From Chiloscyllium plagiosum (Eukaryota), in assembly GCF_004010195.1 (NCBI RefSeq), contig NC_057753.1:2726898-2770642 (forward strand): a stretch of DNA of 43,745 bases, read 5' to 3'. Numbering within the stretch: the stretch's first letter is position 1; each line of letters begins with the position of its first letter. Shown piece after piece: positions 16,120 through 41,003 of the stretch. The notes beneath the pieces are model-generated. The model did not search any database, was not told the DNA's origin, and saw only the letters and a list, made by a program, of their open reading frames with translations. Position numbers and translations under genes: made by a program.

Positions 16120-16276
16120 ACATAAACACTACCTGAGCAACAGCTGCGCGGATCTGTTTGCTACAAGGACTTTTACAAAACTTAATGAACTAACGAACTC
16201 TCCAGAGACTGGAATGGGCTATAAATATCACAGTGAAACACTGAAGTTCTGAACGAGCTCACAGCATCTGATAGAA
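16120..16276 (+). promoter_or_regulatory. Putative core promoter/5' UTR of GPCR copy 1; TATAAA at 16220-16225
   Basis: TATAAA lies 57 nt upstream of the ATG, the same spacing as in copy 2. The ~150 bp block is conserved between the two paralogs. Confidence 0.55.
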
Positions 16277-19153
16277 ATGCATAAAGCACGAAAAGGTCTG
16301 CTGTTTGCCATTTGCTATCCCATCATTGGAGTAATCGGAGTTCCAGGTGAGTTACTGTGCCTTAGTAGTGACTGCATGAACGATGAAAGATACATGCCAT
16401 TAGAATCGCTTTCCATTTGTCAGCGACTCTCGCTCTTATTTTAATGTCTTCTCATTTCCCTGTCATCAGTACACTGGATATCATCTAACAGCGATAATCA
16501 TTTTTCACCAACCTCACATTACTTCATTATTTCAACTTCATGATCTCTCGCACTTCTATGCTTTTGACAAAATATGGCGGGATTAATCTGCATATTTTCC
16601 AACTTATTCAGTTTATTTCAAATTCTAAACCATAAGGCGTCTTCATTATGCGTAGATGATTTCATGTCTAGCAGTATTCTGTTTGTGGCAACACATACAG
16701 TTTCATTGTTCAAATTACACGATGCCTCCATTTCATGCTTACACCATACAAGGTAAATGTGGTGCTAATGCGCAATCGGTCCTGTTCCTGCAGTGAATTC
16801 AAATAATGTTATCATGGCGTCAATTCTATTCTTTTCTGGTATTGGCCCTGTTCTTAAGGATGCATTGACAAAACCTTATGCTGTGTGATTTAGTTTTGTC
16901 GTTGTACCGAAATTCACGTATCATTATCACAGAGCAAATTGCATGCTGTTCTATTATTCGCTTCAGATGTGGATAAGTTGCCACATTGTTCATAGTGTGA
17001 AACTGTAGATTTATTGTGGCATTCACAACTACATATAAGAAACAGGGTGAATTATTAATTGGGAATTATTAACAATAGAGTAATATATGAATAAATTGAA
17101 ATAAGAAAATTGATAATGAAACGACATATGAAACAGAGTTAATGACCAAATCTTAGTTATCAGTCTTTCTGAATATGTTTGATAACATTTCCGTTTCCAC
17201 GTTATCCTTAAACAGAACTTGAATCCAAATGTCCCCACCCAAGGTAACAACATCTATTCCACAATAACAAACCGAAATGATATTTGCATAAATTGGTGTA
17301 ATTGCATATTTATAGATCACTTATATGTGTCTTTTTCTTTCCGTTGTCCGCCTTTACAAAAGTCAATCATGCAACATGGTTGTCCCTCACAGCGTTCGCT
17401 GTTGCTGAGGGTTCTTTAATGACTGGCTTCCTTTCTGGTCGTTCTCTCGACAACACAAAGAAAGGTCCAGACGCCATCTTCATCATATTCTCCAGTAAAT
17501 CCTGCAAATTAAAGGAGCTCTCATTGCCATGATGTATGGATTCTTGCTTTAGTTGTCCACTCAGCAATGAAGTCAATTCTTGATCCACACAGTGGAGCAC
17601 GCGCATTGGGCTAGATTTTAAACAGGCTTTCCACTGTTTGCATTTCACCATCTGTAGTTATAGTTTGTCCACTCCATACCGACAAATCCCAATTTAATGC
17701 ATAGTATTGCTTTGAAAATTTCCAACTGAGACCGACCTAACATGATCTTTTCGAATTCGATGATAAAATTTTCGTCATTTTGCATTGATCTTGATCTGAA
17801 ATTTTTGAGTATCTTCACTGTTGACGTTAACCACAATGAATCATTTTAGATTAGCTTCATCAGTGCAGTCACCTTAAGTGTGCAGTATGACATATAAAGT
17901 GTCCTTCTTGATTTAACTGCTTATTCTCAGTTACTCTATCTTTAGATATTTCAAGATTTTCCACAATATTCTGTACAGTTCCTGCCAGCTGTCTTGATCA
18001 ATTTTAGAAGACGTTAAATTAATTTGGTTTTCTGCTGACTTTACTTGGTGGACATTCTCATCTGGAAGCCATCATAAATCGAAAACATACTCTGGCCAGC
18101 ATTCTGTACAATTCAGATTTTCCAAGATGAAACTCTCAAATTGACTAAGAGTAATTTTAAAAAGAATGTATTCTTTTGTGCTTAAAATCTGCAACATTAA
18201 TCTTTTTTCTCTCTTCCTCTCTGTGTCTGTTGCAGGGAACTTAGCAGTGATTGTGATCCTCTCTCAAAGAAGGTGCGGTATCTCCGGATGTATCGTTTGT
18301 TACCTGGTGTCAATGGCGGTGTCAGATCTGCTGCTCATAGTGACAGCTGCCATATTAAACCGTGCAGCTGGGATATATTTCCCCTTCAGTTTCCTCTCAA
18401 TCACGCCAGTGTGCAGTTTGCGTTCTGCAATTAATTATGGATTTAGTGATAGTTCTATTTGGTTAACAACCGCTTTCACCATTTATCGATTTGTAGCCAT
18501 TTGTTGTCAGACGCTCAAAATAACATATTGCACCAGGAGGATGGCAATGCGCGTTGTAGGAATTGTGATCATATTAAGTTGCATTAAAAATACATTTGTG
18601 TATTTTTATACATGAACCGAGGTACATTGTAAAAAATATACCTTGGTTCTGTAAGATAAAAGATGTATTTTTTACTTCACTTGCATGGACGATATACGAC
18701 TGGATTCGTTCAATTTTAACCACTTGCCTCCCATTCATTCTGATTTTACTGCTCAATGCTTTGACCGTCAGATACATTCTAGTGGCTAATAGAGCCCGCA
18801 GGAGACTGCAGAAGCAGAACATTGGAACGAATCAGAGCGATACAGAGCTGGAGAAGCGGAGAAAGTCAATCGTTTTGCTCTTTGCCATTTCAGTCAGTTT
18901 CATTCTGTTCAATGCATTGTACTTTATTACAATCCTGTATGTCCGCATCAGGAATCTTACTTATGCCCCAGGTTCCAATTTTAATCATTTCCTCTTTGTC
19001 CTCAATGAAAGTGCAATTATGCTTCAGTTTTTAAGTTCCTGCATTAACCCATTTATTCATGCTGGAACCGAAAACAAATTCAGAGCTGAGTTACGGAATG
19101 TGGTACAATATCCTTGGAGTCATTTCCTCAAAAGGTTGAAGATTAGAAAATAG
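16277..19153 (+). pseudogene. GPR139/GPR142-like orphan class A GPCR, probable pseudogene (exon 1 16277..16346, exon 2 18236..19153; +1 T frameshift at 18603-18607)
   Basis: Exon 1 encodes MHKARKGLLFAICYPIIGVIGVP and ends at donor CAG|GTGAGT. The acceptor is a polypyrimidine tract ending TTGCAG|GG (phase 1). The 7TM sequence is split between ORFs 18166..18615 and 18596..19153. It has TATTTTTATA where the intact paralog has TATTTTATA, plus DRF->YRF and NPFIY->NPFIH. Confidence 0.85.
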
Positions 19154-19317
19154 GCAATAGGATAAGAGCACAATGGTAGTGCCAGCAATTAGTAGTCTAG
19201 AGTTACAAACTGCGACTGAGAGCATACGTTGTGAAGTGCTACACGGAAGCAGGCCATTGCTATTAAATTCAAAATAGATAAATCGGGAAAATAATGCTAG
19301 ACTCAATAACAGTGACT

Positions 19318-19384
19318 GGATTAGTGGTGCTGGAAGAGCTCAGCAGTTCAGGCAGCATCCAAGGAGCAGTAAAGTCGGTGTTTT
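19318..19384. mobile_element. Short repeat-element fragment inserted in the 3' UTR/flank with a GTGACT target-site duplication
   Basis: GTGACT occurs at 19312-19317 and 19385-19390, while the paralog near 41164 has a single GTGACT. The insert shares 'cagcag-tcaggcagcatccaaggagcag' with the 37015-37166 element. Confidence 0.7.
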
Positions 19385-19641
19385 GTGACTTCTAAGTTCT
19401 CAGACAGCATCAAGCCCATTCACCGAGGGCCTCTATGGATGGAAATCTGCAAAGATCATCTGATTGCGTGTACGTCGGACGCCAATTCCTCTGAAGTGTA
19501 CTTGACAAAGAACTGTTCTCGAAGGTAGTCTGGATAACAATTGAGTTTAAGGACCACTGCGGACAGGAAATGATCGTGCCCTTCGAGAAATGTGTCCGGA
19601 TGACCAACTAACGAGTTGAAGCCTGGCCGGCTGCGAATTGC

Positions 19642-19647
19642 AATAAA
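19642..19647 (+). terminator. Candidate polyadenylation signal AATAAA (copy 1)
   Basis: Lies at the homologous position to the AATAAA at 41417-41422 in copy 2. Confidence 0.3.
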
Positions 19648-20806
19648 TTGATCTTCACTGTCTTCTGAAGATTGCAACGAGTTAATTGTCATTTCTACAA
19701 TCCCTCATTGCGAGGGAGTCGCAGTCGCCAAATTTAACACAGTTAACTTTCAGTATATATCAGGGTTCTTGTGGCTTGAATTAAATTCCTGCCTGCTCTC
19801 GAGATTTGCAATAACATAACCCTGTTGACAGATCTCCATCTCTAAGGGATTGAGTGCCACCTATCCCAGAGCTCCACAGCAAGCTTTCTAAACAGATTGA
19901 TTGGAAAATGTCATTGACCAAGACTGCTTGCCTTCAGCAACTAAACTGTAATGTAACATATTTTGATTAAACTTTCTCATGTTTAGCTGCATTACCATTA
20001 AAGCTGCTACTAACGTGCCAAAACAAAGTATTCCAGTGGATGAATACAATTTGTCCGTTTAACAGATTTGAAAGAGTAATCATACAAAATCAAACGACGG
20101 TCGCACACCACGAATCTTATTTATTTTTGTGTTGGCTCTGTAAAATGCGAAGCCATACATCTGAATGATTTGGGATACTAAGGGGGCTTTTAGCGATTGT
20201 GCTCACTAAATGGAGGCACATGGTTGTTCGATAAAAGTCAATATGCGCTGTTTGAGAAAATATCTTCAACGCCCATCACTGGACTGGTGGACAGTGTTGA
20301 GATAAAAGCAAAGGAGCTCGCAAAGTCGAATCCACCCCTTGAGTGATTTCCGCTATTTATTGAGATCATGTCTCATATGGGGGCATGATTGCACAAAACT
20401 CTTGCTATCTCTTGCTGAAAATAAAAACTATCTCAGATTTAAAACTAAGGATTGATCTATCATTAACTGCCGTTTGTGGAAGAGAGTTCGAAACAAGTAT
20501 TGCCCTTTGTGAATTGAGGTGCTTCTGAGCATCTTTCCTGACGGACTGGATCGAATTCTCAGACTATTCCCACAGTTCCTGAATCTCCAAACAATGGAAA
20601 TTGTTGATCTTTCCCTACTTTGTCTTGTTGTTGTTAATATATTGATGACTTCCATCAGATAACCACAGGGACTTCTAAACGAGAGAGAATTTATCTGGAG
20701 ACCCCGTGTTGTGTGTTAGACGCCCGGGTCCCTTCTTTATAAATCTAAGTTTAACAAATAAGCCAGATGAAACATGGTCTCATTCGCAGCTTTGAAGTTA
20801 CGATTT

Positions 20807-20995
20807 GGGGTGACATGATGGCTCAGTGGATAGCATTGCTGCCGCCCGGCGTCTGAGTTCAATTCCAGCCTCAGGCAAATGTCTGTGTCGTGTTTGCACA
20901 TTTTCCCCGTGTCTGCGTGGGTTTTCGCTGGGTGCTCCAGTTTTCTCCCACAATCCAAAGATGTGCAAACTCGGTGAATTGGCCATGCCAAATTC
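20807..20995 (+). mobile_element. 3'-truncated tRNA-derived SINE (HE1/V-SINE type)
   Basis: A box TGGCTCAGTGG, B box GAGTTCAATTCC and central domain TTTGCACATTTTCCCCGTGTCTGCGTGGGTTT. Confidence 0.8.
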
Positions 20996-21639
20996 ATTTC
21001 TTATTAATTTTGTCACTGTTCTTCACATGCTCAATGTATTTTTCTCATGCAGTCGTCTTTCACTGTCTCTCCAATTTCTCATCATATCGCTTTGGATCAC
21101 CTTTCGATCTGCTTTGCACGTGCATGCTTGGATTTCTTTCAAAATTCGACCATCAAACGTTGTACTAATTATCATTGAATTAGCAGTTGCAAATCTTCGC
21201 TGGTCAAGGAAGTAATATTACGTGGACTGCAAGGAACGGGGATCTATTCCGTGCTTTGGGTATTAGAGAGTTGTTAGCAACTGTGTCTATAAAATAAGAC
21301 CGAAATATTCTCATCCTCATTTTCACTCAAATTGAATTCATTCAGTCATTTCATTGCCACTGAGACACTTCACAAAATCGTCACCGAATCTACAGAAGAT
21401 TTAAAGAAGCTTTATTATTATTATACTCTGAATTTAGGCTTTTTTTTTGGTTATGACTTTTTTGTGGAGAACTAGGCAAGTGAGACCTCAACAATGCAGC
21501 ATATCACAGCCCACCACACCGCACCAAGCTAAGCGATTTGGCTGCACAGGTTTCACAGCTCTCACTTTCTCAAGATCGCCCATCTCTTGAGATAGAGTGA
21601 CTCTCTGGTGATTCCACTACTCGGCGTCTCTCTCTCATA

Positions 21640-22758
21640 AAAGGTCAGTTGAAGGTGAAAGGAGAAAAATGTAAACGGATCCAAGGGTCAAATTTTCCAG
21701 AAGGTGGTTTGTATATAGAACGAATAGTCAGAGGAAGTGACAGATTCTGGTTTAGTTACAACATTTGAAAGACAATTGAAGAGGTGCATGAATAGGAAAG
21801 GTTGAGCAGGCTTAGCCAGAAGCGTATGTCATATAGGATACCGAGAGATAGCCAATTGGATTCAAATTTGGCTCAAGGATGAGAAGCAGAGTAATGGTTG
21901 AAGGTTGTTTCTCGGACTGGAGGCCTGTGACTATCAGTGGTGTGCCAGAGGGATCAGTACTGGAACGTTTGTTATTTGTTAATTTCATAAATGATCTGGA
22001 TGTGAATGCACACGGCATGATTAGTAACCTATGGCTAATATAAATTAGGAGGTATCGTTGATAGTCTGAAAAATTATCATAAATTGCAGAGCGATCTTGA
22101 TCAGATTGGGGAGTGGGCTGAGGATTGGCAATTGCAATTCAATGCAGATAAATGTGAAGTGTTGCATTTTGGAAAGTCAAACCAAACCAGTACTTTCACA
22201 GTGAATGGTCAAGTCCTGTGGAGTGGTGTGGAACAGAGGGATATCAGAGTTCAAATACATAGTTCTTTTAACGTTGCATCATAGGTAGACAGGGTGGTGA
22301 AGAAAACATTTAGCATGCTGGCCTTTATCTGTCAAGGCATTGAGGAAAAGACAGTTTATCAATCATTGCTAACGTTGTACTTGAAGTACTGTGTACAGTT
22401 TTGGTGTTTCTGTTGTTGGAAACATTTTGTTAAATTAGAAAGAGTACAAAGAAGCTTTACTTGCATGTTGCCAGGACGAGTCGTTCTGAGTTCCATGGAG
22501 AGGTTTGCCAAGATGGGACTTTATTTCTTGGAACATAGGAGAATGAGGGTACCTCATTGAGGTGTACAGACTCATGACGGGCATAGATATGATGAATGTG
22601 TTTTGTCTTTTTTTTTCAAGGATGAGGATTTGAAAACTAAATGGCATATGTTTATGTTGAGAGGGGAGAGATTTAACATGGACTTGAGTGGAAAATTCTT
22701 CATCAGAGAGTGGTGTATATATGGGATGAGCTGCCAGAGTAAGTGGCCGACGCAGGTA
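21640..22758 (+). mobile_element. Old degenerate CR1 ORF2 3' part (two fragments)
   Basis: ORFs 22084..22284 ('WAEDWQLQFNADKCEVLHFGKSN...EQRDIRV') and 22294..22560 ('LKYCVQFW...LERVQRSFT'). Confidence 0.85.
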
Positions 22759-23258: not shown

Positions 23259-24377
23259 TCTTCTTCTCTTTCCTCTGCGTTTAATCGCAAAGCCTTGCCT
23301 TTTGCCTCTAATTCAAGATGCTTCATTTGCAATTGAAATTTAGCCATCTCTAAAGGCTTTGATGGCGCTTCCAGCAAATTTAAATCCTGAACAGTTGCTG
23401 TAACTGTCTCTTCTTTCCTCACAGAAGGAGGCAGCTCCAGCTCCATCTTGTTTTCTAATTTCCACAGCTTGGCCTTAACCATCTTTTATAAACACCCCTA
23501 AATTTCTTCTTCTTCCCCAGAAAACTCTTGGTGACTGGAAGAGCCATTGCTATCCCAAGCATTCTTCAAACAAAGTAAATCAGCACGTGGAAAAAAAGAC
23601 CCTAACACCTACCACTCGCTGCTTCGATTCCAAAAACTCCACCTCCAGTTTGGAAGAACAATATAAATTCCACAAAGTGCCTGCAGTCCGCTATGGGATA
23701 GGCCGGATGGCTGAAAACATTTCCAGGAGGTAGTTATTCGACTTTAAGCGGGTGTACAATGGATATTCCAGGAGAGAATCAGCTGGTCAGACTATTTCGT
23801 GTTAAACAAAACAGCATTTTTCCAAGATTACTGAATGAAACACAAAAAAACAGAAAAAAGAATTCCGAATAGACATTTATTTTATCCGTCAACCCAACAG
23901 ACTATACTAACTTAATGATGTTGTTACACAAGAATTGCAACAATCTCCATAAACATTGCTTGACACAAAATGTAAATTCAAAGAAAGGCTGACAGGCTTG
24001 AGGTTAGAGTGAGAGGGGTGAGAGAGACAGATAGAGAGAAAGAGGGAGAAAGAGAGTCAGAGAGGGAGTGAGGGAGGAGAGAGAGGGAATCTCGTCGGAC
24101 ATGCTTCCAGCAGCCTTTCTTCACTGCACACACACATTCGACCACACCATGGAACAGCCGAACTGCGCTGAGAGAACTGCCCACTGCTTTTTCATGACAC
24201 AAGTGTGTGTTTTTCTTAACTTTAAAGTCTTCTGTCTGAGGAAGAATCTGTTAGCTGTAAACAAATTGTCTCTAAAATCCTTCACCTGAGACATTTCAGA
24301 ACCAGTGTCGTTTACAGCCTCTCTGAAGCAAAAACCCAAGGACAGCCTAACCTTGATAAAGGACCAGCTTCATTACA
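23259..24377 (-). mobile_element. Gypsy gag remnant + 5' LTR (third copy)
   Basis: ORF 22703..23482 ('LPPSVRKEETVTATVQDLNLLEAPS...FQLQMKHLELEAK') is homologous to 10781..11194. The LTR at ~23690-24377 is homologous to 11275-11930. Confidence 0.7.
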
Positions 24378-26370
24378 AAGTGAACACTTTTTGTCAGTGT
24401 TTGAAACTAAATGAAAACGGTTTCTGATTTGTGTTTTGATGCAGAGTTCGTTATACTTTCTTGAATGGTCACATGAAATAATGTTTTAAAAGCAGACAAT
24501 AGTATGAAAGCATTCTGTGTGTAACATGAGATGGAAGAGGACGTGCTGCGGTGCACAATATTTTTCATGTTAAATAATTCTATTTTCACATTTAAATATG
24601 GCACCCAGAGTGGAATGAAACATTTCAATCCACTCTGGGCACCATGTAATAAAAAGATGACGCAGGAACTTAATATCTGTATCATAAATCTGTTGTCTTC
24701 TATTTTAAAAGTAAAATTGCTGAAATTGGAACATGAATTACAAATAAAGTTTTTGAGTTGGATGCATGGGATCTATATAAGACACAACAATTGTTACAGG
24801 ATGAAACGACCTGAGGTGGTGAAGACTACATCAATTGACTTTCTCCCCTTCTGTATCTCTCGTTCACACAGATTTTTTTTTTCATTCCTCCGAGACCAGA
24901 GTCTCCTCTAAGATGTCTGGCACGCAACAGTATGTTTGACAGTTGGAACATTGACCAGAATAATCAGAATAAATTGGACTATATCTGTCAAAATACATAT
25001 AAACCAGTTATGGCATATTTATGTGACGTATAAGCCACGATTTAAATACTGTGTAACCAGACATGCTGTTAATTATGTACATAGCTTCCGAGTGAAAATA
25101 TAAAGTGGCATTTTTGCACAGGCCAGGGTGAAGATGCATCCTCTTATTCATTCTCCCTTCTTCCAGTGCAATGGCGCCGTGGTGTTAATGGCTGCAATTC
25201 TCATCTCACGCCTGGCATTTCGCTCTTTTTTCCATGATTGCACAAAGGTTTTACTGGGATATGGAGCTGAGTTACACTGGCGGAAGCCAAAATGCTCAAT
25301 GAGCAGATCATTGCTTCGCTGCTGCTTCATAGCTCTGTTGATTAAACATTCCATTACTGACGATGGACGTTAGACTGAAGGGATGATAATTGGCCATTGT
25401 GGGCTTGCCCTGCTTTTTGTGTACTGGTCATATTTGGGAAATTATTCAAGTTGTCGGGAGATGACTGTATTTTGGCTGAAACGATAGCTTTGCATAGAGG
25501 AGAACAGATTCTAGAGAACAAACCTTCATTACAATTGCCTTAATGCTGTCGGAGTCCACATGCTTTGCGGTGTCCAGTGTCTACAACTACATCTTTGAAG
25601 CATTTAGGACAATCCGAAGATGAAGAAGGATTATATCAAAGTTAAACTTACGTTGTTCCTTTCCACTATAGTCTTGTGCTGTCACAGGCCAGTGTCTTTT
25701 TTTTTTCAAAATTCACTTGCATGAATGAAGTATTGCTGATAAACAGATCACACTTAAAATCATGCTGTGGAAGCAAGTTCTTCGGACGATCGGGTCCAAA
25801 CCGAATCATCGAACAGGATTCCACCCAGACACAACCCTCAACCGGTTTCCCTCCATTTCCCATGGCCAGTCCACCACAGCTGCACATGTTTGGACTGTGG
25901 GAGGAAACCAGGGGACCAGGAGGAAACCCATGCTGACACGGGGAAAATATGAAAACTCCTCACAGACAGCCGACCAAGGAAGGATTCCATTGAATGTAAG
26001 ACACAGAAGCCATTCTGTCTATCTAGCCTGTTCTACCTTTCGATGGTGGCTGATAAGTTTTTCAAACCTATTTTCCCGCTTTCTTCCCATAACATTTGAT
26101 CCCCTTGGCAATCAAGAACCTATCTATCTCTGTTTAAAACATCCTCAAAGACCTTGGTTCCACAGCCTTCTGCGACAATGAATTCCAAAGATTCACCACT
26201 CTCAGGCTGAAGAATTTTCTCCTTATCTCCGTTCTTAAGGTCTTCTTCTTATTATAATGCAGTGCCCTCCGGTTTTCCTCTCTACTACCAATGGAAACTT
26301 GTTTCCACTGGGAATCTGCCCAGGCTGTTCTGCAAGTATCAATTAGACGCCTCGTTATCCTTCTAGACTT
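23259..26370 (+). repeat. Partial direct copy of the upstream half of the GPCR duplication unit (no gene follows)
   Basis: Collinear homology to ~10845-14290 and ~33195-36075. For example, 'tcaattgactttctccccttc' occurs at 12755 and 24831, with a variant near 34716. Confidence 0.85.
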
Positions 26371-26399
26371 TATCTATGAGACTCATAAGTCATACTTTC

Positions 26400-29235
26400 T
26401 CATTTTCCTGCCTTCTCTCCATATCTCTTCAACTCATTACCAACTAAACAATCTGCTTAACTGCTCCTTAAGTTTACTCACTGTCTCCGCATCCACTCCA
26501 CTTTGAGTTAGTGACTTCCACACATGCACAATCCTCCTGAACTCTGTTTTGAATTTTCTAATCTTTATTCTAAGACTATGACCTCTCGCCCTTAAAAGCC
26601 CCGCAAAAGATAGCATCTGTTCAATAACTTTTACATACACATCTTTTATCATGTTGAATATCTCAATTTAATCTCCCCTCATGCTTCTAAATTCCAGAGA
26701 GTTTAGGTCTAAACTGTTCAATCACTCCTCGTAAGGCAAGTCACTCATCTCTGGAATCAATGCAGTAAACCTCCTCTCAAATGCCTACAATATATTGCCT
26801 CAAATAGTGAGACAAACACCGTGCGAGGACTCCAGGTGCAGTCTCACCATCACCTTGTGTATTTGCTACAATACGGTCTTACTTTTACATAATATTCTCT
26901 GAAATATAAAAGCCAACGTTCCGTTCATTTCCTTTATCATCTGCTGTATCTGTATACGAGTTTCTGGGACTCATGAACGAGGACACAAATATGAGTCTGC
27001 ATCAGATCACCCGAAGTCTCTCCATAGTCGCCTTCTCATTTTAACGACCCAAATGCACGACCTTANNNNNNNNNNNNNNNNNNNNNNNNNNNNNNNNNNN
27101 NNNNNNNNNNNNNNNNNNNNNNCATTGCAATTAAGCATCCTGTCTATTTTTGTGTCGTCCGCAACTGTAGCTTCTACCTCTATCTCAAGGTTGTTAATGC
27201 AGATTGTAAATAGCTGGAACCCCAGACCGAACCTTGTTGCATCGTACAAGTTACATTTGCCATTCAAAAAGCAGATTTATCCTGACTCTCTGTCTTCTGT
27301 CATCAGCCAGTCAACTATCCATGCTAATACATTTCTGCTAATCCAACATGATCCAAACTTGTGAATTAATCTTTTTTTTATTTGCATTGCCCAATCAACC
27401 GCCTTGCAGAAGACCAGATAAATTATACCTGCAGCACCGCCATTGTCCATGTTGCTTGTTAGTTGTTTGAAGAAAACTCACAAAATTAGCCAAGCATTAT
27501 TTGCCTCCCTTCATAATGGCAAGTGTCCCGAATTCCTTTTTTAACTATCCTAATATCATGCCGTTCCACCTTCAATGAGTTTTAGACAAATGCTCCAGAT
27601 CCTTTTGCTCAATGGAACTTCATAGTATCATGCCATTATTTTATACTTTGTGTCAAGTTTTTCCTTCTAAAGTGTATCGTCATGCATTTCTCAGGATAAA
27701 ATTCCATTGCTTATCTTTCTCTTTCTCCATCCCGTTTACATTTTTCTTCACGCCCAAGACATTCAACAGCACTCTTAAATACCTGAACAACTTTCTGTCA
27801 TCTCCAAATGTACCCATCCAGCCCCTCACACAGTCATCTAAGTCATTTATTTTAAAAAATGAATAATTAAGGACTCAGCAGATGCCACTTTCATCAACCA
27901 CTGAAAACTGGCTTCCAATCATTAAAGCAACCTTCTGTCACCACACTCTGCCTGGTGGAAATCAATTAATTTTAAATCAAATCCATCAAATTATCCTGTG
28001 CGGCATATACGTTTACCTTCTTGATAATTTCCTATGTGAGACCTCGTCAACAGTTTTGTTTAAATTTATATTACTGACCTCATTTACACATTTCGTCACC
28101 TTCTTACGTTTCAATCAAATTCAGTCGGCTTGACCATACTCTGACCAAGCCATGCTGACTGTCCTGATCAATCTTTGCTTCTCCAAGTGGAGATAGACGC
28201 TGTCCTTCAAAATTATCTGCAGCAATTTCCTGACCACTGATGTGGGAATCGCTGCTCTGTTGTCCTCTGGATTATCTCTAAAATCCTTCATAAGTATTAA
28301 GAACACATTAATCATTCTCCTGTACTCTGCGACCTGCAGAGATTTTGCTTTTAAAATGTCAGTGTTTCAGCTATCTCCTCCCTTGCCTCCGACATCAGGC
28401 TGTGACACATTACATCTGGACCATGAGATTTATGCACTTTCAAACCCGCCAACATTTCTAAAACCTTGCCCTAACTGCTCAATTCGCTCAAGCACCTCAC
28501 AGTCTCTCCCAAAAGCTTGCATACCTATGTCCTCATTCTCTTAGTTGAACAACACTCAATAATTGGGCCTCACAGCCCTTCTGCAACAATAAATTCCACA
28601 GATTCAGCACCATCTGATTTTAGAGATTCTTCCTCATCTTAGCTCGAAAACATCATCCTTTCTCCCCGAGGCTGTGCCTCAGCAGAATCGTCTCATTTGT
28701 TACTGAATATGTTTTTTTTTTCAACTCCACTCTTACCAGGACTCTTCGTATTCTGTAAACTTCAATGATATCTCCTTCATATTTCTAAATTCCATCGCGT
28801 TAAGTTCCAGAGTCCTCAACCACTCCTCAAATGACAAACCCTTCATTCCCGGAATTGGTCTTGCTAACCTTCTCTGAACCCCCATGAACACTATGATATG
28901 GAAACGAAATTTGCTCACGACATTCCAAACCCGATCTGACTAGCGCCTCATACAGCCTTAACAGTATATATCAAGAGTCGTGCATTCCACCACTCCCAAA
29001 ATGAATTTTACCATTGCATTGGCCTTCCTAATTGGCAAATTAAAATGTATATTAACCGAAAAAGTATCCTGATTGAGGACTCACAAATTCTTTTGTGCTT
29101 CAGATTTAGAAAGCCTTTCGCAAATAATCTGCACCTCCGTTCTTCCCACTGAAATGTATAAACTCACAATTTTCCTTATTGTACTCTATCTGCCTCTTCT
29201 TTGCCCACTCGTCTAGCTTGTCCAAGTCTAACCAC
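26400..29235 (-). mobile_element. Cluster of several old, fragmented CR1-type LINE remnants (contains a 57-N gap at 27066-27122)
   Basis: Decayed RT/C-terminal motifs on the minus strand: 'RARGHSLRIKIRKFKTE' (26437..26652), 'FTICINNLE...VADDTKI' (27007..27267), 'TSVVRKLLQIILKDSVYLHLE' (28121..28315) and 'GVQRRLARPIPGMKGLSFEEWLRTLEL' (28733..28918). Confidence 0.75.
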
Positions 29236-29296
29236 AGCCTCGCCAATGTCCTGCTTAAACATTTCTCCTATTTCATGTGTCTGGAAAATTCAGGCA

Positions 29297-30150: not shown

Positions 30151-31029
30151 ATAAGTAAAGGCAATGCAACCATAGACTGTTTCTGGGGTAAAATAACATA
30201 TATTACTGAAGAGCGACAACAGTTAGTTTTATGGAAAGCAACACAGACGTTTTGGAATATACAGGAGTGATTTAAAAAAACGTGGACCAGTAAGAGTCGT
30301 GTCGAAGAGGGAGACCAGGAGAGGGAGGTGAAAGCAGAACAATGCTGCATTTGCCAGTCTAAACAGAAGCACAATGTTCCCCAAGCAGTCGTGATAAAGG
30401 AGTAAGGGCACAGAAATGAGGGGCCTGAGCAGAGGAGTGCAGTGGTGCTGCGGAACAGAGTAGAATAGAACAGAATACCCTTTATAGTCATATGTACTCC
30501 ATTGTAGACGCTATTTTTAACACAGCTTTGAAAAGCTTTCACAGTGTCGGCCTGATATTGGCACCAGGTTAGGTACAAGTACGGAGGTACAAATCATGGC
30601 CACGAAAGAGCATTAGAAAGCAGTTGCATCATTTTACCGATTTTTAAAAACGTTATCAATACGATATCGTTAGAGGATTGTTGTTGCAGTCAGGTTAAAA
30701 ACATCAAATATAAAATGAATTGCACGAGCTCAGCACAGGGCCACAACATGTGGTTTGATTACTCGCACCCGTCCCCAGTCCACAGTGGTCCACACTCCAC
30801 TGCAAGCTTACAGATCATCCTGCACAGGCACTCAGCTGCTCCAAGGTAAGTTTGAGGACTGCATCCGCCACGTCAGTCTCCATTTGGGAGTCACTGCCCG
30901 CGAGCTGCTCCTGGACTCACTGCCCACGAGATGCTCAGGGACTCACTATCGTGCGCTGCTCCAGGATTCAGAATAACAGTGCAAAAGTGCATATACTTTT
31001 CCTATGTATAAAAGACAGAACAGACTAGT

Positions 31030-31160
31030 TCTCTGAAGAATGTTCATGGGAATTAAAATATTAACTTCGCTTTACCTCCATCGACGCTGCGAGACATGCT
31101 GAGTTTCGCCAGCAGGTTTTCTGTCTCTTTCTGAATTCCAGCTTGCACAGCTTTTTTCTT
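31030..31160. mobile_element. Degenerate member of the same short repeat family as 37015-37166
   Basis: 'ctgaagaa...gacgctgcgagacatgctgagtttcgccagcagg...ttccagc' resembles the reverse strand of the 37015 element. Confidence 0.45.
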
Positions 31161-32387
31161 GCTTTAGGCTATTGCAAGCAGGAAGCTGCCAGCACAGAAA
31201 TAGGTCATGTCACCCCATCTGCCGCTTTGAAAGAACTTTATGGATGTTAGCTCTGGAATAATGAATGCACCAACGTAAACATTCAGTCATTAAACAGAAA
31301 ACACCACCACCCTTCGCCCACCTCCCATCACCTTATGCAGTCAGCAGTTTCTAAAGATTCTTCATACTCTGAAAGAAATTTCTCTTCATCTGAATCTTAA
31401 ATAGACAATGTTGGTTTCGTGAGAGCATTTGTTGCAGTTCTAGAGTCACTAGGCAGGAGAAACTTTCGAACTATATATCCTCTCAGAGCACAAAACATTT
31501 TCTTCCATGTTTTAATGAGTTCACTTCTGATACTTCAAAACTATCAGTAATATGGTTGCAGTTCCCTTGATCGCTCCTTGAGAGACATAAAGATCGAATA
31601 AGAGGCAAATACAAAATTGATGCCTCGTAATAGCTTAGGAATTATAAATAAAACCATTTCCATGTCATTCTCTCACTTGACACAGATCTGGCAGATCAGT
31701 AACTGCTCATGGTTAGACCAGTAGTGAGTCCAAGGATGTGAATGGCCTAATCAACGGTATAAAGGACATTCTCTGTAGATTAGAACATTGTGTTCAACGA
31801 ATTGGACATAATTCGAAAAGATGATAAACATAAGTACCAAGCACTTAGTTCTTCGTATCTTGAATTCAACAACAAGAACAGAAAACTGCTGTGATGGAAG
31901 AACACCCATCTAAATCTGGAGGGGGAGTAGGATGTGAGGAAGAAGCTATAAGCTTTCACTGAATCCTACACTCAAGTTTGTACCAGAGGAGCGATAGCAG
32001 AGTTAAATATCACCCAGAGCAGCACAGACTGACTTAACCAATTTAACCAGGCAGTGAAAGGTATGGCCGCCCACTCAGAAATCAATCAGAATGATGGGTG
32101 ACGTTGTGCATGAGACTGAACTCCTATGGAGGCGTCAACAAGGTGACTCATATAAATTCTGTGCGAGGATAATACCTAAACACCAGTCACAGAGCCAAGA
32201 AACCATCCGCAACCATGCACCATGGTAAACCCCATCCAACACAGACATAAATCCAGAAGTCTATCTCGAATAGAGAAATAGAAACGAGTACAGACTACTG
32301 TCTTTGTCAGTGATTCCAGTGATCACTACTTCCTGACCACACCCATCCCGTGTCCTCCAAGTGTGAGGAAAGATAGGAGTTGCACGT

Positions 32388-34277
32388 TGTTTTGATACAG
32401 GCGAGATCCCTCAAAACTTTTCAAGTATGTAGACCAGACTCTTGTTAAACGTTCTTCAAATGCAGGCATTGGTATTAAAGGTTCAGGTTTTGTTACCACC
32501 TGTGTTTTTGCAATTACCTTTTATGCATGATACGTCTGCTAAAATTCAACTGCATGCTTGTGCAGCCCATGCCAGTGAAAATGTTTCTTGTACTTTAGAT
32601 TGTGTTTCCTCATTCCTAGATGGCCCCCAAGTGGTAGCTCTATACACCACTGGCAATACGATTTGATGAATTTCTGCACATTTATCATCTGCCTGAATAC
32701 GTGACGGTCTCCATTTCCTCATTGAGACATCATTTTTAAGGTAATAACATTCAGGGATAGATTCTGATTCCTTCTCTGTGTATGACTTTTGATACAATTT
32801 CTTCAAATTTTCATCATTCTGCTGTAACTCAATTAATATATCTGAGCTAAAGATGTCTGCATTTTCATCTATTTGCTCTTACTTTGTCTCTGCTAATTCC
32901 ACTTCAACTTCCATATATGTACTCTTTGATGTTACAGCTGGTGACTTTGTGAACTCATCACCACACAGTCATGGAAAATTCCAGGATGTGGCAGGAGGCA
33001 GTACCCCGACTGGTGAATGAGTTGTATCATTAGCAAGGACGAATCGTATTCCTGAAGCTGACTATTTGTCTAGTGACGCTACCAAGAATTCTCCACTCCT
33101 CTCTGGGCATTCTAACATCACTTTAAATAATTGAGAGCTTTAACCGTGAATTCCCGTTACCAGTACCAATTTCTGAAGTTCAATCTCTCTCTCTCTCATT
33201 TTCTCTTTCATCTGCTTTTAATCCAGATTCCTTGCCTTTTGCATCGAACTCAAGCTGCTTCATTTGCAGTTGATTTTTAACCATCTCTAAAGATTCTGAC
33301 AGCGCTTCAAGCAAATTTAAATTCTGAGCTATTGCTGGGATTATCTCTTCTCTCCTCGCGGAAATGGCTGCTCCAACATCAGTTTGGTTGCTAATTCCTG
33401 CAACTTACCCTAAACCACCTTTCGTAAAACTCCCAATGTCACTTCTTCCACCCCCAGAAAATTCTTGGTGATTGAAAGAGCCATTACTCTGCCAAGCAAG
33501 CTTTAAACCAACGAAACTATCACCCGGGATAAAAGACACTAACACCTATCACTCGCTGCTTCGATTCCAACACCTCCACCCTCAATTTGGAACAACACAT
33601 CAAATCCCACAAATATCCTCCCATATGTTATGGGACAAGCCAAACCGCTCAAAGCATTTCAAGTTGGTAGCTGAGACATTCACTTTGCTTTTCGATTGTA
33701 TGCCAATATACAGTGGAATGTCCAGGAGAGTATGAGCAGGTCAGACTATTTAGTTTTGAACAAAACAAAATTTATTTGTAAGATTACTGAATGAAATACA
33801 AAGAAGAGAATACAGTATACAGAATAATGTATCCAATCGAAAAATCCAGCAGGCGATCCCAACTCACTGTTGCTGGTCCAAAATACTTGCCAGCATCCTC
33901 ATGAATACCCATTGACACAAAAGGTAAAATCAAAAGAAGGCTTACAGGCTGGAAATTAGAGAGAGAGAGAGACTCCAGTCTCCTCCAGCAACCTTTCTTC
34001 ACTATTAACACACACATACACACACACATTTATATAGAGTAGTCGAGCACAACAAAGATTTGCTGAAATTGCACTTGAGAGAACTGGCCAATTCCCTTTC
34101 ATGACACAAGCGTTTTTTGTTAACTTGAAAGCCTTCTTGCTGAAGCAGTATTCGTTAGTTGTCAACAAATTGGCCCGAAATCCTTTACCTCAGACGTTTC
34201 GGAACCTGTGGGTTACAACCTCTCTGAAACAAAAACCAAGGACAAGCCAACCCTTGTGACACGAATAGCTTGGTCAC
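32388..34277 (-). mobile_element. Internally deleted Gypsy remnant (3' LTR stub, integrase N-terminus, gag remnant, 5' LTR ~33626-34277)
   Basis: ORF 32546..32806 ('PECYYLKNDVSMRKWRPS...HQIVLPVVYR') is typical of the region just upstream of Gypsy integrase. The segment is collinear with 9334-11930 but has a larger internal deletion near 33165. Confidence 0.75.
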
Positions 34278-37014
34278 TAAGTAAAAAGTGTTCAAAACTA
34301 AATGAAAACGATTTCTGATGTGATGCAGATTTCTTTATACATTCTTAAACTGTCGCATGAAATAGAGTTTTAAAGTAGACGGTACTGTGAAAGTAGTCTG
34401 TGTGTACCATGACATGGAAGAGAATGTGCTGCAATGTACAGTACTTCTAATGTTAAATAAATCGATTTTCACATTTAATTGTTCTAATGGAAGTACTTTG
34501 AATATTCCGTTCCACTCTGGGTGCCAGATAAATGTAAAGAATGACGCGGGCAATTAATAACTGAATCATAAATCTGTTACCTTCAATGATAAATGTCGAA
34601 TTGCTGAAATTGGAACTTGAATGACAAGTAACGTTTGCCAGTTTGACACATCGGATCTATATAAAACATAACAATTATGACGGGATGATACGACCTGAGG
34701 TGGAGAACAGCAAATCAATTGACTTTTTCCACTTCAGCATCTGTAGGATAACTGACCTTTTTGCCATTCCTCTGAAATCAGAGTCCCCTCTAATATCTCT
34801 GTATCGCCAGCGCATCTTTGACAGTTAAAGCATTGACCAGTGAAATCAGGATAAATAGGCGTAGAATTGTTAAAATAAATGTAAACCAGTTATGGCATAT
34901 GTATGCGATGTACAAGCAATGACGCTGCGGAATCAGAACTGTTGTTAAGTATGTACATAGCTTCCTAATGCAAATATAATGGGCCATTTTTGCACAGGCC
35001 AGGGGGAAGTTGAGTCCCAGAATTCATGCTCCTATTTTCGCATTGCAATGCCTACTTGGTGTTATTCTCATCTCAACTCTGGAATTATGCTCTTTCCTCC
35101 ATGATTGCAATAAGTGCGCTTGACTGAGCAGATAAAACCTTAACAGATCTTTTCTAGCACTGTTGATTAAACATTCCATTCGTGGCGATGGAGAGTCGAT
35201 GGTAATTGGTCATGGTGGAATTCTCCTGATTTTTGTGCACTGGACCTATCTAGATGATTTCTCAAATTGTCGGGAGATGACAGTATTCTGGCTTAAACAA
35301 TAGTTTGGCGAAGAGTACAACAAATTCTGGAGCACAGACCTTCATTACAATTACCATAATGCTAACAGAGTCCAAAGGCTTTGCCGTGTCCAGTATCTCT
35401 AATTGTTTCTTTTGCAAGCATTTTGGACAATCTGAAGGTGAAGAAGAGTTTATATCAAAATAAAACTTACATTGTTTGCTTACGCAATCGTCTTGAACTG
35501 TCACGTGACAGTCTCTTGTTGAAAATTCGCTTGCATGAATGAAATATTGCTGAGAAACAAATCACACTTAAACTCCTGCTGTGAAAACAGGTCATTCGGA
35601 CAAGCGAGTCCAAACAGATCCCACGAAAAATATCTCACCAGACACACCCCCAACCGTTTCCCGGCATTCCCCATGGCCAGTCCACCTAAACTGCAAATAC
35701 TTGGACTGTTGGAGAAAAGCGCAGGACCTGGAGCAAACCCCCGCTGAAGCAGGAAGAATGTACAAACTGCGCACAGACAGTCGCCCAAGGGAGGAACCAT
35801 AAGACCAGTAGCAGAAATTAAGCCATTGTCCCTATCGAATGTTATCCACCATTCAATTATGTCTGATAGGTTTTTCGAACCCATTTCCCACTTTCTTCCC
35901 TTAACATTTGATCCCATTGGCAATCAAAAATACAACTATCACTGTTTTAAATATACTCAATGACCTCGGCTCCACAACCTTCTGAAGCAATGAATTTCAT
36001 CGATTTTCAAATCTCAGGCTGAGGAGGTTTATCCTTATCTCCGTTCTTAAGTTTCTTCATTTTACTCTAATGTCGTGTAAACAAAGTAGCCACCGTGCCA
36101 CAAGTCGATTCAGGCTGGCAAGCCTATTTCTGCCGAATGATCAGCTCTTTATTTCCATCAATGCGCTAACGGAGGCGATTGCATAATGCTGTTCTCGCTG
36201 CAATATACGATCCAGGGTAATATCCCATGTTGGAACCTGCCAAGGGAGATGGCAGAAATTGAATTAAATAAAAACCCGAAATTAAGAGTCTCAAGATGAC
36301 CGTGAATCAATTGTCGAGTGTCGGGGGAAGACCATCGGACTCAGTAATGTTCTTTACAGAAGCAAGCTGGCATCCTAACTTAGTTTGAATTCTATGTATT
36401 TGTAGCTATCTGGAAATCCGTAGATCTCTAATTCAAACATGCACAACAACAGGTGTAGATAGCATATGCTTTGGCAATGACATGACATAAGACCTTTGGC
36501 GATCTGAAACTGTTGCATCCAAGAACTACACACAAATAATAAGAGACTACTCATGCAATTGTGAGATAAATTTTCGGGCAATAAACAGGAGCATCAAACT
36601 TTATCGAAAATGTCTGATGTTTGAATGTTCAACTGGACTTGGAATATAATGCTTCTGAAATTGGAAACTGAAATTGGCAAGACAACAAAACAATGATCAT
36701 AGGAACTTAAACCAAAATTTCTGAGGATCAAACTGCCGAGGAAATTCGGTGGTGCTTCTGAATGAATGGCTTCAGATTAAAAATTGTTTTAATATAGTTT
36801 GCATTTATCTTAAAACGGTATTGTTAATGATTAAATAATCGTTGTCTTCTGACTGTTTCTCGAAGCCGAAAGACTGAAGTTTGGAAATTTGAAAATAATT
36901 CAGCAGAAAATAATTTCACGAATTTGAAGCAGAAAGGAATTTATTATGACGTTTGTTACTACTGTGTAATGACAGTGAAGAATGCAGATGACATCTTGGC
37001 GTAAATAATGGATA

Positions 37015-37166
37015 GGGGAAAGTGAGGACTGCAGATGCTGGAGATCAGAGCTGAAAATGTGTTGCTGGAAAAGCGCAGCAGGTCAGGCAGCATCCAAGGA
37101 GCAGGAGAATCGACGTTTCGGGCATGAGCCCTTCCTGTTGCTTTTCCAGCAACACATTTTCAGTAC
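37015..37166. mobile_element. 152-bp non-autonomous insertion with a 24-bp internal inverted repeat and a 10-bp TSD (ATAATGGATA)
   Basis: ATAATGGATA is at 37005-37014 and 37167-37176. The inverted repeat is CTGAAAATGTGTTGCTGGAAAAGC (37051-37074) / GCTTTTCCAGCAACACATTTTCAG (37140-37163). The paralog near 15418 has the empty site. Confidence 0.8.
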
Positions 37167-37639
37167 ATAATGGATACAATGATGTGGAGATGCCGGTGTT
37201 GGACTTAGGGGGACAAAATTTAAAAACTCACAACAGCAGGTTATCGTCAAACTGTTGGACTAGAACCGTGTGTTGGGTGATTTTGAACTTATTAATTTAA
37301 GGGTAGAATACAAGAGCAGGGATTTCTTTCAGTTTTTGAATAGGGCCTGAGTGAGACCAGGGAATCTTTTGACTGAGGAGAGAACGCAATGATTATTTGC
37401 CAGAATGATTCCTAGGATGGTAGCCTGTGTCAAAAACAGAGACTGGATCATTTAGAACTGAATACACTGCAACTGGAATCAATGAGGAAACTACGAAAAT
37501 CTAGCAGGAGTAGACAGGGTCAAAGAGAAAGGATGTTCTCGACGACCAGAGAGTCCAGAACCAAGCCTTAGAGAGTCGAATGGACTATTCCTGCTTCAAA
37601 TTTGTGTACTTCTATGGAGAGTCAGTGACCGGATTGGAG

Positions 37640-37795
37640 CAGAAACACCACCTGAGCAACAGCTGCTCTGATCTGTTTCTTACAAGGACATTAGTAAAAT
37701 GTAATGAGCCAATGAACTCCCCAGAGCCTGGAATGAGCTATAAATATCGCAATTTCACACTGAAGTTCTGAATTAGCACACAGCATCTAATAGAA
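37640..37795 (+). promoter_or_regulatory. Putative core promoter/5' UTR of GPCR copy 2; TATAAA at 37739-37744
   Basis: TATAAA lies 57 nt before the ATG. CCAAT is at 37709, and E-box-like CACCTG (37649) and CAGCTG (37660) are present. The block is conserved with copy 1. Confidence 0.55.
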
Positions 37796-37865
37796 ATGCA
37801 TGAAGCGACAAAAGGTCTGCTGTTTGCCATTTACTATCCCATCATTGGAGTAATAGGAGTTCCAG
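37796..37865 (+). CDS. GPR139/GPR142-like orphan class A GPCR, coding exon 1 (MHEATKGLLFAIYYPIIGVIGVP+G)
   Basis: 70-nt exon from the ATG to the consensus donor CAG|GTAAGT. The phase-1 join to exon 2 restores TM1 'YYPIIGVIGVPANLAVIVILS'. It is conserved with 16277..16346. Confidence 0.85.
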
Positions 37866-38270
37866 GTAAGTTACTGTGCCTTGGTAGTGACTGCATGAAC
37901 AAGTAAAGCGGCTGTGAAAGAGACATTTCATTAGAATAGCTTCGCCACTTGTCAGGTACTCTCTCTGATTTAACGTCTTCTCATTTCCCCATCACCAGTA
38001 CACTCAATTTCGTTTAACAGCTGTAACCGTTTTTCACAAACCTCGCATTAGTTCGTTATTTCAATCTCAGGATCTCTTCTACTTCTATCCATATGACAAA
38101 ATTTGGCCGGGTTAATCTGTATCTTCTCCCCGTTATCAAGTTTATTTCAAATTCTCAACCATAAAGCTGGTTCATTCCTCCCGGACAATTGCATGTTCAG
38201 CAGCATTCTGTTTCTGGGAACACATACAATTTAATTGTTCTAATTATATGATTCCTCCGTTGAATGCTCA

Positions 38271-39008
38271 CACCTTATAAAGTATGTGTATTTCTAATAC
38301 GGAGTCGGCCCTGTTCCTGCAGTGAATTCAAATAATGTTATCATGGCATCAAGTCAATTCTATTCTAGTATTGACGCTGTTCTTGTGGATGAATTAACGA
38401 AACCTTATTGCTGTAGAAATCAGTTCTGTCTTCGTACTGAAATTCAAATATTATTATCACAGAGAAAATTATGTCCTGTTCTATTATTCACTTCAGATGT
38501 GGATAAGTTGCCACTTTATCCATAGTGTGTAATTGTAGATTTCTTGCAATATTGACAACTACAGATAAGAAGCACGATGAATTAATAATTAAGAATTATT
38601 AACCATAGAATAAAGTATGAATAAATGTAAATCAGGAAATTGTTAATGACACACCACCTTATAAAGTAAGTGTAATTCTAATACGGAGTCGGCCCTGTTC
38701 CTGCAGTGAATTCAAATAATGTTATCATGGCATCAAGTCAATTCTATTCTAGTATTGACTCTGTTCTTGTGGATGAATTAACGAAACCTTATTGCTGTGG
38801 AAATCAGTTCTGTCGTCGTACTGAAAATCACATATTATTATCACAGAGCAAATTATGTCCTGTTCTATTATTCACTTCAGATGTGTGTAATTGTAGATTT
38901 CTTGCAATATTGACAGCTACAGATAAGAATCACGATGAATTAATAATTAAGAATTATTAACAATAGAATAAAGTATGAATAAATGTAAATCAGGAAATTG
39001 TTAATGAC
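38271..39008 (+). repeat. Recent intronic tandem duplication (two copies, period 384 bp; second copy has a ~26-bp deletion)
   Basis: CACCTTATAAAGTA... starts at 38271 and 38655, and both copies end ...GGAAATTGTTAATGAC (38650, 39008). The copy-1 intron has only one copy. Confidence 0.92.
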
Positions 39009-40086
39009 GCACTGTATCAATGGCAGGTAATAGCCACATCTTATTTATCTGTCTCTCTGGAAATGTTCGAACATATTTCAGTTGCCACATTATACTGAGA
39101 CGGAAGTTAAATTCATTCGAGATAACGACATTATTCTTGCAACAAAAAACTGAAATGATTTCTGCATAAGCATTGTTATCATTGCATATTTATGGATCAC
39201 TGATATGTTTCTTTTTTTCCCTTCTCAGCCTCATTCAGATTGGTTGTCCTTCACCGCATTCACTGTTGCTGAGAGTTATGTAATGACTGACTTCCTTTCT
39301 TGTCCTTTTCTCCTCAACGCATAGAAATGCCCAAACACGATATACATCATATTTTCCAGACTCAGTAAAGTCCGATAAATTGAAGTATGTCTCACAGCCA
39401 TGATGCATGGATGCTTGCTTTAAGTGTCCATTCAGCAATGAAGTCAATTCTTGAGCCGCACAGTCGGCTACATTTTTAATAGGCTTTACACTGCTTGCAC
39501 TTCACCATCTGTAGTTATACACTGTCCACTTGATACCGACAAATCCCAATTTATTACTTGGTTATGGGGAACAAACATACAACTGAGCTGTATGTAACAT
39601 GTTCTTTTCAAAGTCGAAGACAAAATGATTGTCATTTTGCATTCATCTTGATCTGAATATTTTTGAGCATCTTCACTGCTGACGTTAACAACAACGAATC
39701 ATTTTAGATTAGCTTCTTTGGATGTGCAGTGTGAAATATTAAATGTCCTTGATGATTTAACTGCTCAGTCTCAGTTGCTCTATCTTTAGTTATTTCAAGA
39801 TTTCTTGCAATTTTCTGTAGTGTTCCTGTCAGCACTGTCTTGTTCAATCTTAGAAGATGTTAAGTTAATTTTGCTTTCGGCTGACATTTACATTGTGTAC
39901 ATTCTCATCTCGAAGCCATAATAAGTTGAATAAATACGTTGGCCAGCATTCTTCACAATTCATATTCGAGTTTTCTGTCATTATACTCTCAAATTGACGA
40001 AGAGTCCATTAAAGAAGAACGAATACCTTTGTGATTAAAATCTGCAACATTCATCTTTTTTCTTTCCCTCTCTCTGTATATTGCAG

Positions 40087-41003
40087 CTAACTTAGCAGTT
40101 ATTGTGATCCTCTCTCAAAGAAGATGTGGTATCTCCGGATGCATCATCTATTACCTGGTGTCAATGGCAGTTTCAGATCTACTGCTCATTGTGACTGCGG
40201 CCATATTAAACCGTGTTGCTGGGATTTATTTCCCCTTCAGTTTCCTCTCAATCACGCCAGTGTGCAGTTTGCGTTCTGCAATTAATTATGGATTTATTGA
40301 TAGTTCTACCTGGTTAACAGCCGCTTTCACCATTGATCGATTTGTAGCCATTTGTTGTCAAACGCTCAAAATAACATATTGCACCAGGAGGATGGCAATG
40401 CACGTTGTAGGAATTGTGATCATATTAAGTTGCATAAAAAATACATTTATGTATTTTATACATGAACCGAGGTACATTGTAAAAAATATACCTTGGTTCT
40501 GTAAATTAAAAGATATATTTTTTACTTCACTTGCATGGACTGCATACGACTGGATTCGTTCAATTTTAACCACTTGCCTTCCATTCATTCTGATTTTACT
40601 GCTCAATGCTCTGACCGTCAGATACATTCTAGTAGCTAATCGAGGCCGCAGGAGACTGCAAAAGCAGAATATTGGAACGAATCAGAGCGATACAGAGCTG
40701 GAGAAGCGGAGAAGGTCAATTGTTTTGCTCTTTGCCATTTCAGGCAGTTTCATTCTGTTCAATGCATTGTATTTCATAACGATCCTGTATGTCCGCATTA
40801 GGAATCTTATTTATGCCTCCGGTTCTGACTTTAATAATTTCCTTTTTGTCCTCAATGAAAGTGCATTTATGCTTCAGTTTTTGAGTTCCTGCATCAATCC
40901 ATTTATTTATGCTGGAACCCAAAACAAATTCAGAGCTGAGATACAGAATGCGGTACAATATCCTTGGAATCATTTCCTCAAAAAGTGGAAGATTACAAAA
41001 TAA
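40087..41003 (+). CDS. GPR139/GPR142-like orphan class A GPCR, coding exon 2 (full CDS join 37796..37865,40087..41003; 328 aa; intact)
   Basis: Acceptor is a pyrimidine tract ending TTGCAG|CT, and the frame is open to TAA at 41003. Class A motifs are present: TM1 N, TM2 'LVSMAVSDLL', TM3 Cys and 'FTIDRFVAIC', ECL2 Cys 'PWFC', TM5 'CLPF', TM7 'SSCINPFIY' and helix 8 'KFR'. Confidence 0.92.

Follow-up and report, generated by a model that had tools for sequence, protein, structure and literature searches.

An apparently undescribed elasmobranch family of GPR139/GPR142-related orphan receptors with a copy-to-copy variable pocket, and its possible use in external chemosensation

The 43,745-nucleotide (nt) stretch of Chiloscyllium plagiosum contig NC_057753.1 analyzed here (the window) holds a real cluster of a real, large, and apparently undescribed family of orphan class A (rhodopsin-like) G protein-coupled receptors (GPCRs). 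One gene, gene B, is intact and would be a working member; a second, gene A, and three antisense remnants would be dead members. We are highly confident that this is a large, repeatedly copied elasmobranch receptor family that is not orthologous to GPR139. It is placed on the GPR139/GPR142-related branch, and we propose that it derives from a gene left apparently single-copy in amphibians and sturgeon, that in sharks a whole 11–14 kb unit (promoter, two exons, and flanks) was copied in tandem, and that the copies were held under purifying selection for a while and then often lost. The genes are already in RefSeq under an automatic name; what is new is the recognition of the family, its origin, and its pocket pattern.

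Copy number was taken from the predicted proteins of other sharks, counted as clusters at 90% identity, such that the counts are lower bounds and may include mispredicted genes. A search with exon 2 of gene B matched 757 proteins at an expectation value (E) of 1e-10 among 3736 candidates; 119 of the best 120 of these 757 carry shark species names, with 69 from Heterodontus francisci (horn shark) and 18 from Rhincodon typus (whale shark), and the closest among those listed (80–82%) come from Chiloscyllium punctatum and Hemiscyllium ocellatum. When representatives at 50% identity were searched with a profile, 131 clusters, some fragments and a few proteins of the sister clade among them, scored E 1e-30 or better. 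A family member was found in a skate (P0408), and 28 columns are invariant across 47 family proteins from many shark orders. Most of the best 120 members are named “probable G-protein coupled receptor 139” in RefSeq, other automatic names being capa, sex-peptide, TRH, apelin, FMRFamide, or GPR15 receptor-like. A preliminary description of this stretch had proposed a lineage-expanded family evolving by birth and death, and the 757 matches, the tandem units, the dead copies, and at least 69 distinct 90%-identity clusters in one shark species, set against the one or two copies that it had named as contrary evidence, bear this proposal out. One whale shark model (P0077) joins a family receptor to C2H2 zinc fingers; it is probably a misprediction, and hints that family clusters sit among zinc-finger arrays.

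Gene B has a coding length of 987 nt (328 residues), divided between two exons around transmembrane helix (TM) 1:

37796 to 37865, plus strand: gene B exon 1, 70 nt, encoding a short N-terminus and the first half of TM1, ending in phase 1, donor GTAAGT
37866 to 40086, plus strand: gene B intron, GT-AG, phase 1, with an internal tandem duplication
40087 to 41003, plus strand: gene B exon 2, 917 nt, encoding the rest of TM1 through TM7 and helix 8

The sequence TATAAATA lies 57 nt upstream of the gene B ATG (37739–37746), and is found again upstream of gene A exon 1 (16220–16227). Gene B is a class A GPCR: it matches Pfam 7tm_1 at E 1.2e-21 (77.9 bits against a cut-off of 30.5), and it has N1.50 and D2.50 and, in exon 2, C3.25, the cysteine of the second extracellular loop (ECL2), DRF, P5.50, and NPFIY (NPxxY), with residue numbers assigned from motifs and not from a solved structure. 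The one intact gene with class A motifs of the preliminary description is thus upheld. In TM6, W6.48 and P6.50 are both absent, a loss that suggests altered activation mechanics; a proline is present at 6.50 in 9 of 69 Heterodontus paralogs versus 20 of 20 amphibian orthologs. The predicted gene B model is a helical bundle (mean predicted local distance difference test score 68) that matches class A structures; a fold search with this model ranked GPR15 first, TRHR second, and GPR139 tenth, with E values within one order of magnitude that do not discriminate among class A receptors. Within the gene B intron, 38271–38654 and 38655–39012 form a tandem duplication (90% identical). One DNA run has a contig that lacks it (358 bases skipped), and another shows a zero-depth bin within it. 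The duplication may be polymorphic, or the skipping contigs may derive from paralogs or a sister species. The two DNA runs were aligned to gene B at 88% likeness, and the 299 and 239 aligned pieces (164 and 150 of them less than 95% alike) fit many paralogs and do not give a copy number.

Gene A has the same two-exon structure, and its coding identity to gene B is 92%, compared with 71–81% in the flanks:

16277 to 16346, plus strand: gene A exon 1, donor GTGAGT
18236 to 19153, plus strand: gene A exon 2, with an extra T in the run 18603–18607, a stop at 18613–18615, and the changes D107Y and Y298H

The extra T leads to a stop at codon 150. Taken alone this frameshift could be a homopolymer error; DNA reads on gene B show no indel in exon 2, but a summed depth of up to 1377 (flank bins mostly about 20–60) would hide a single contig below the 5% threshold. 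The substitutions provide separate evidence. When the differences between genes A and B were polarised against three close relatives, 15 fell on gene A, 8 on gene B, and 10 were ambiguous; residues kept by at least 80% of 120 relatives were hit by 9 of the 15 gene A changes, versus 1 of the 8 in gene B (Fisher p 0.038), including D107Y in DRF, Y298H in NPxxY, Q302E, and G243V. Gene A is therefore a real and recent pseudogene even if the homopolymer is erroneous, in agreement with the disabled gene reported in the preliminary description. Between genes A and B the ratio of nonsynonymous to synonymous divergence (dN/dS) is 0.23 at a dS of 0.21, implying that constraint acted on the two genes through most of the period since they duplicated.

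It is very improbable that the cluster represents a shark GPR139 or GPR142 ortholog that was locally duplicated and senses Trp/Phe, despite the RefSeq label of most members. Human GPR139 is the top match of the family profile among PDB sequences (E 2.8e-14), but TRHR scores nearly equally (4.2e-14), and the nearest solved structures of the family are mostly peptide receptors. At E 0.001, gene B exon 2 matched 15 PDB sequences, and GPR139 was not among these; a full-length relative at 80% placed GPR139 fourth (E 4e-8), behind the PrRP and NMU2 receptors. Such remoteness argues against orthology given that GPR139, itself encoded by two exons, is 70% identical between human and zebrafish (PMC7318219). 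The residues reported to line the Trp/Phe pocket of GPR139 are E108, F109, H187, W241, R244, and N271 (PMC7318219), and at the aligned positions gene B has N90, Y91, R181, N249, Y252, and F284, i.e. no match in six, although a histidine is present at the H187 position in 40 of the 69 Heterodontus paralogs. Aligned human GPR139 has an aspartate at 3.25, a shorter ECL2 loop without a cysteine, and NFFLY in TM7, whereas the shark family keeps both cysteines and NPxxY (C3.25 in 68 and P7.50 in all 69 Heterodontus paralogs). With GPR139 and GPR142, which are activated by L-Trp/L-Phe, the family shares a similar TM1, a two-exon gene, and a very short N-terminus, and GPR139 is its nearest human receptor by profile, tied with TRHR; it differs in its remote sequence, its pocket residues, and its many copies in place of one. 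The earlier suspicion that gene B is not a one-to-one GPR139 ortholog is thus supported by the PDB search, the pocket, and the copy number, and the mismatch at all six pocket residues speaks against aromatic amino acid sensing of the GPR139 type.

Two conserved lineages lie near the family. T1 (the P0231 clade) comprises, in the best 120 of 131 matches, proteins from teleosts, sturgeon, bowfin, coelacanth, amphibians, turtles, catshark, and zebra shark, and T2 (the P0219 clade) comprises 20 amphibian proteins and one from sturgeon (21 of 25 matches). Each has about one cluster per named species, and both are labelled “probable GPR139”; they were found by a word-limited search, by which absence from amniotes or teleosts is not proven. 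T1 and T2 proteins are 27–32% identical to gene B (profile-profile E 7e-59). In trees of 79, 50, and 26 chosen rows, built without true GPR139 or GPR142 sequences, T2 is in each case the sister group of the expanded family, with support of 100/99 in the 50-row tree and of 98 by the Shimodaira-Hasegawa-like approximate likelihood ratio test under a mixture model in the 26-row tree; the alternative grouping of the family with T1, which was named after the earlier trees had been seen, is rejected (approximately unbiased test, p 0.0003). A coelacanth/teleost clade is among the next branches outside the family and T2, and genes A and B group together as sisters, with two H. ocellatum paralogs beside them. 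The sister of the family in these trees is therefore an apparently single-copy gene of amphibians and sturgeon, such that the lineage-specific family of the preliminary description stands as an elasmobranch expansion and not as a family of shark-only origin.

A profile of mostly T1 proteins matches human GPR139 at E 2.8e-32, far ahead of the next structure (2.9e-23), and thereby links the group as a whole with the branch of GPR139. T2 retains F3.33, W6.48, K6.51, and N7.39, close to the GPR139 pocket, and most of these residues are lost in the shark subfamily. Similarity begins exactly at the gene B intron site in 37 of 118 T1 and 20 of 120 family gene models, indirect evidence that the intron position may be common to T1, a conserved bony-vertebrate relative. 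GPR139 may have an intron at the same phase-1 TM1 position, as the preliminary description proposed. The orphans GPR210A and GPR210B, together with a third, unnamed subtype, are described beside GPR139/142 in coelacanth, gar, and fishes (PMC6504862). GPR210A/B of Rinne et al. are probably T1 or its kin, and would then belong to the same wider group as T1, T2, and the shark family; the main text of that study is without sharks or cartilaginous fishes, and the passage on these receptors describes no expansion. The label “probable GPR139” in non-mammalian annotations hence covers at least three distinct, non-orthologous lineages.

Column entropy was compared between 32 pocket-facing and 125 other TM positions, using a pocket list drawn from general knowledge of class A structures and fixed before the run. 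Mean entropy is higher in the pocket than elsewhere in the TM region among the 69 Heterodontus paralogs (1.06 versus 0.56, p 3e-5) and the 18 Rhincodon paralogs (1.02 versus 0.68, p 0.004), p values that are optimistic since the paralogs are related. The pattern is reversed among 20 amphibian T2 orthologs (0.07 versus 0.43, p 1e-5) and 36 T1 orthologs (0.50 versus 0.79, p 0.024). This reversal is what would be expected if a receptor for one fixed ligand had given rise to a set of receptors for many ligands, with loss of ligand constraint as a second, weaker explanation. The amphibian T2 receptor, with its almost invariant pocket, is a good target for deorphanisation.

The pocket of the shark receptors thus varies on a conserved scaffold. 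We propose that the extracellular pocket of each receptor accommodates its own small peptide or polar metabolite, that signalling proceeds via a G protein, and that the repertoire would detect many outside chemicals in a sensory epithelium (in the nose, in taste or solitary chemosensory cells, in the skin, or in the gut). Comparable origins are those of the TAARs from amine receptors and of the nematode srw genes from neuropeptide receptors. For external chemosensory use of the family we consider the chances about even. More tentatively, and as a possibility rather than a probability, this may be an unrecognised shark and skate chemosensory family that is larger than the whole known olfactory repertoire and that arose from a peptide-receptor lineage surviving as a single gene in amphibians and sturgeon. 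Cartilaginous fishes are reported to have many sensory neurons but, on average, 43.8 (20–62) complete olfactory receptor genes (PMC10869828), and catshark olfactory neurons are described as microvillous and positive for Go and TRPC2 (PMC10116579). If correct, the proposal would set a vertebrate case beside the srw expansion of nematodes, and would account for large shark olfactory organs that work with so few known receptors.

Several points weigh against external chemosensory use. The proposal rests on sequence, and expression in any tissue is a prediction. V2R/OlfC expression is already robust in the catshark nose (PMC10116579), and in a catshark brain and olfactory library the 50 most specific genes contain no GPCR, not even a known olfactory receptor (PMC11979771). 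Besides the optimistic p values, a stricter control for the pocket pattern, using 59 non-pocket positions of the extracellular half, gives a modest difference for Heterodontus (p 0.024) and no significant one for Rhincodon (p 0.145). Finally, gene A and the three remnants make up four dead copies out of the five family copies in the window, as would also be seen under weak selection on copy number. Two single-cell RNA runs with the same species label and an unstated tissue, of which about 2% and 6% were read, gave one partial read less than 90% alike and no reads, respectively, and count neither way.

The same number of dead copies is consistent with a largely non-adaptive amplification, in which a duplication-prone, repeat-bearing unit multiplies and most copies are redundant or dying, with few that matter. 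The units do carry shared repeat-like flanks, and predicted proteins in databases can include pseudogenes. We regard this explanation as improbable on account of the dN/dS between genes A and B, the columns kept invariant across many shark orders, and the concentration of variation in the pocket in place of an even spread.

An immune or barrier repertoire, in which receptors on leukocytes, mast-like cells, or nociceptive neurons detect microbial or damage peptides, would produce the same birth-and-death pattern and the same variable pocket, and would fit the mostly peptide-binding nature of the nearest solved structures. In mammals, peptides of microbial or damage origin are sensed by the expanded FPR and MRGPR receptors. 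MAS1 and its relatives are reported as a bony-vertebrate family that sharks lack (PMC8455134), which leaves such a role open. Expression of the shark receptors in immune cells is likewise a prediction, and no mention of GPCRs turned up when the bamboo shark genome paper, which treats fast-evolving immune genes, was searched by term (PMC7677710). Overall we view an immune role as rather unlikely.

The ancestry of the branch also brings endogenous or sperm-borne peptides into consideration. GPR139/142 are reported to share a common origin with the protostome MIP/sex-peptide, FMRFamide, proctolin, and myosuppressin receptors (PMC8514136; PMC12208981), and the shark receptors might accordingly serve reproductive or neuroendocrine functions, like the insect sex-peptide/MIP receptor, and have diversified by receptor-ligand co-evolution. 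The almost invariant pocket of the single-copy amphibian sister does imply a fixed endogenous ligand. However, the cluster count in the horn shark is far above the usual need of endogenous peptide systems, and in nematodes the known peptide receptor families are described as stable in number (PMC2576165). We therefore hold this explanation to be doubtful at best.

Among known chemosensory systems, a parallel to the shark family is offered by the nematode srw genes. These are related to FMRFamide/myosuppressin receptors, from which branch they expanded by birth and death as the shark family did, and have been proposed as sensors of environmental peptides (PMC2576165); Srw-bearing clusters are among the language-model neighbours. 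The two expansions are independent and in different phyla, and gene B has no Srw Pfam match at E 0.01. The vertebrate OR, TAAR, V1R/ORA, V2R/OlfC, T1R, and T2R families likewise show tandem clusters, pseudogenes, lineage-specific size, a compact coding region, and a variable pocket, but gene B is not a sequence member of any of them, matching only Pfam 7tm_1 and, below the cut-off, Srx.

A literature search whose coverage excluded most subscription journals found no description of the family, and among papers naming both “GPR139” and “shark” none is about sharks by its title. Term searches of the catshark (PMC11979771, without its supplement), whale shark (PMC8455134, main text and supplements), and bamboo shark (PMC7677710) genome papers found no mention of it. 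Published accounts credit cartilaginous fishes with few GPCRs and a very small set of chemoreceptors, the olfactory receptor genes numbering 20–62. An overlooked family whose pocket differs between copies, and of which a single shark has at least 69 distinct members, would alter this picture in whichever tissue it is used, and the conserved amphibian gene offers a tractable route, in Xenopus, to the ancestral ligand.

Self-comparison of the window revealed the following duplication units:

9250 to 22758, plus strand: duplication unit A, comprising flank, antisense remnant, gene A, and 3' flank
32304 to 43504, plus strand: duplication unit B, comprising flank, antisense remnant, gene B, and 3' flank
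23261 to 26370, plus strand: unit C, a truncated copy of 10847–14292 that contains a remnant, is without a plus-strand gene, and starts at a gap of Ns
119 to 3361, minus strand: unit D, an inverted copy of the 3' flank only, 73–80% identical to the flanks of units A and B

Units A and B are colinear, with a nucleotide identity of 71–81%. The preliminary description overlooked three minus-strand remnants, with units A, C, and B holding one each:

12385 to 13096, minus strand: remnant upstream of gene A, a decayed older family paralog spanning about ECL2 to TM7 (profile E 3e-12)
24560 to 25124, minus strand: remnant inside unit C, from the same older paralog (exon match 24623–25021, profile E 2.6e-28)
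34468 to 35245, minus strand: remnant upstream of gene B, from the same older paralog (profile E 7e-15)

The remnants are 75–79% identical to one another, like the flanks, and contain stops and frameshifts. The older paralog, we infer, was probably already dead when the units were copied. Chance or mirror matches were considered for the remnants and ruled out, the profile E values of 3e-12 to 3e-28 contrasting with values above 0.2 for mirror matches over real genes. That the units are shared transposons only was likewise ruled out for A, B, and C, in which remnant and flanks occur in the same order. Of the two copies previously described as gene-less, unit C in fact holds a decayed minus-strand family exon, whereas unit D is an inverted 3' flank in which coding sequence was looked for (119–3361) and none was found.

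The status of unit D is uncertain because it adjoins a 95–97% inverted repeat with two N gaps and reverse transcriptase copies of long interspersed nuclear elements (LINEs). It is joined to an inverted copy of 9250–10177 (96.6%), in a region interrupted by two N gaps and populated by young LINE copies, and may be partly an assembly effect or a shared transposon only. The inverted repeat, within 3369–10177, pairs 3369–4296 with 9250–10177 (96.6%) and 4903–6035 with 7578–8726 (94.5%), and encloses two oppositely oriented LINE reverse transcriptase copies (RVT_1) and two of the four N gaps in the window. It may reflect a recent inversion, or else an artefact of haplotype or assembly.

The upstream part of each unit (31920–34400, with copies near 3586–4658, 9259–12041, and 23261–24488) resembles a decayed long terminal repeat retrotransposon with what we take to be gag-like and integrase-adjacent fragments; a Pfam scan of two fragments from this part gave no match. 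Between units C and B, the 5.5 kb of 26370–31900 match nothing else in the window and hold no remnant of the family, and include a 26-bp tandem repeat (30886–30947). A perfect 7-bp tandem repeat of 28 copies lies at 4706–4902, within a LINE copy.

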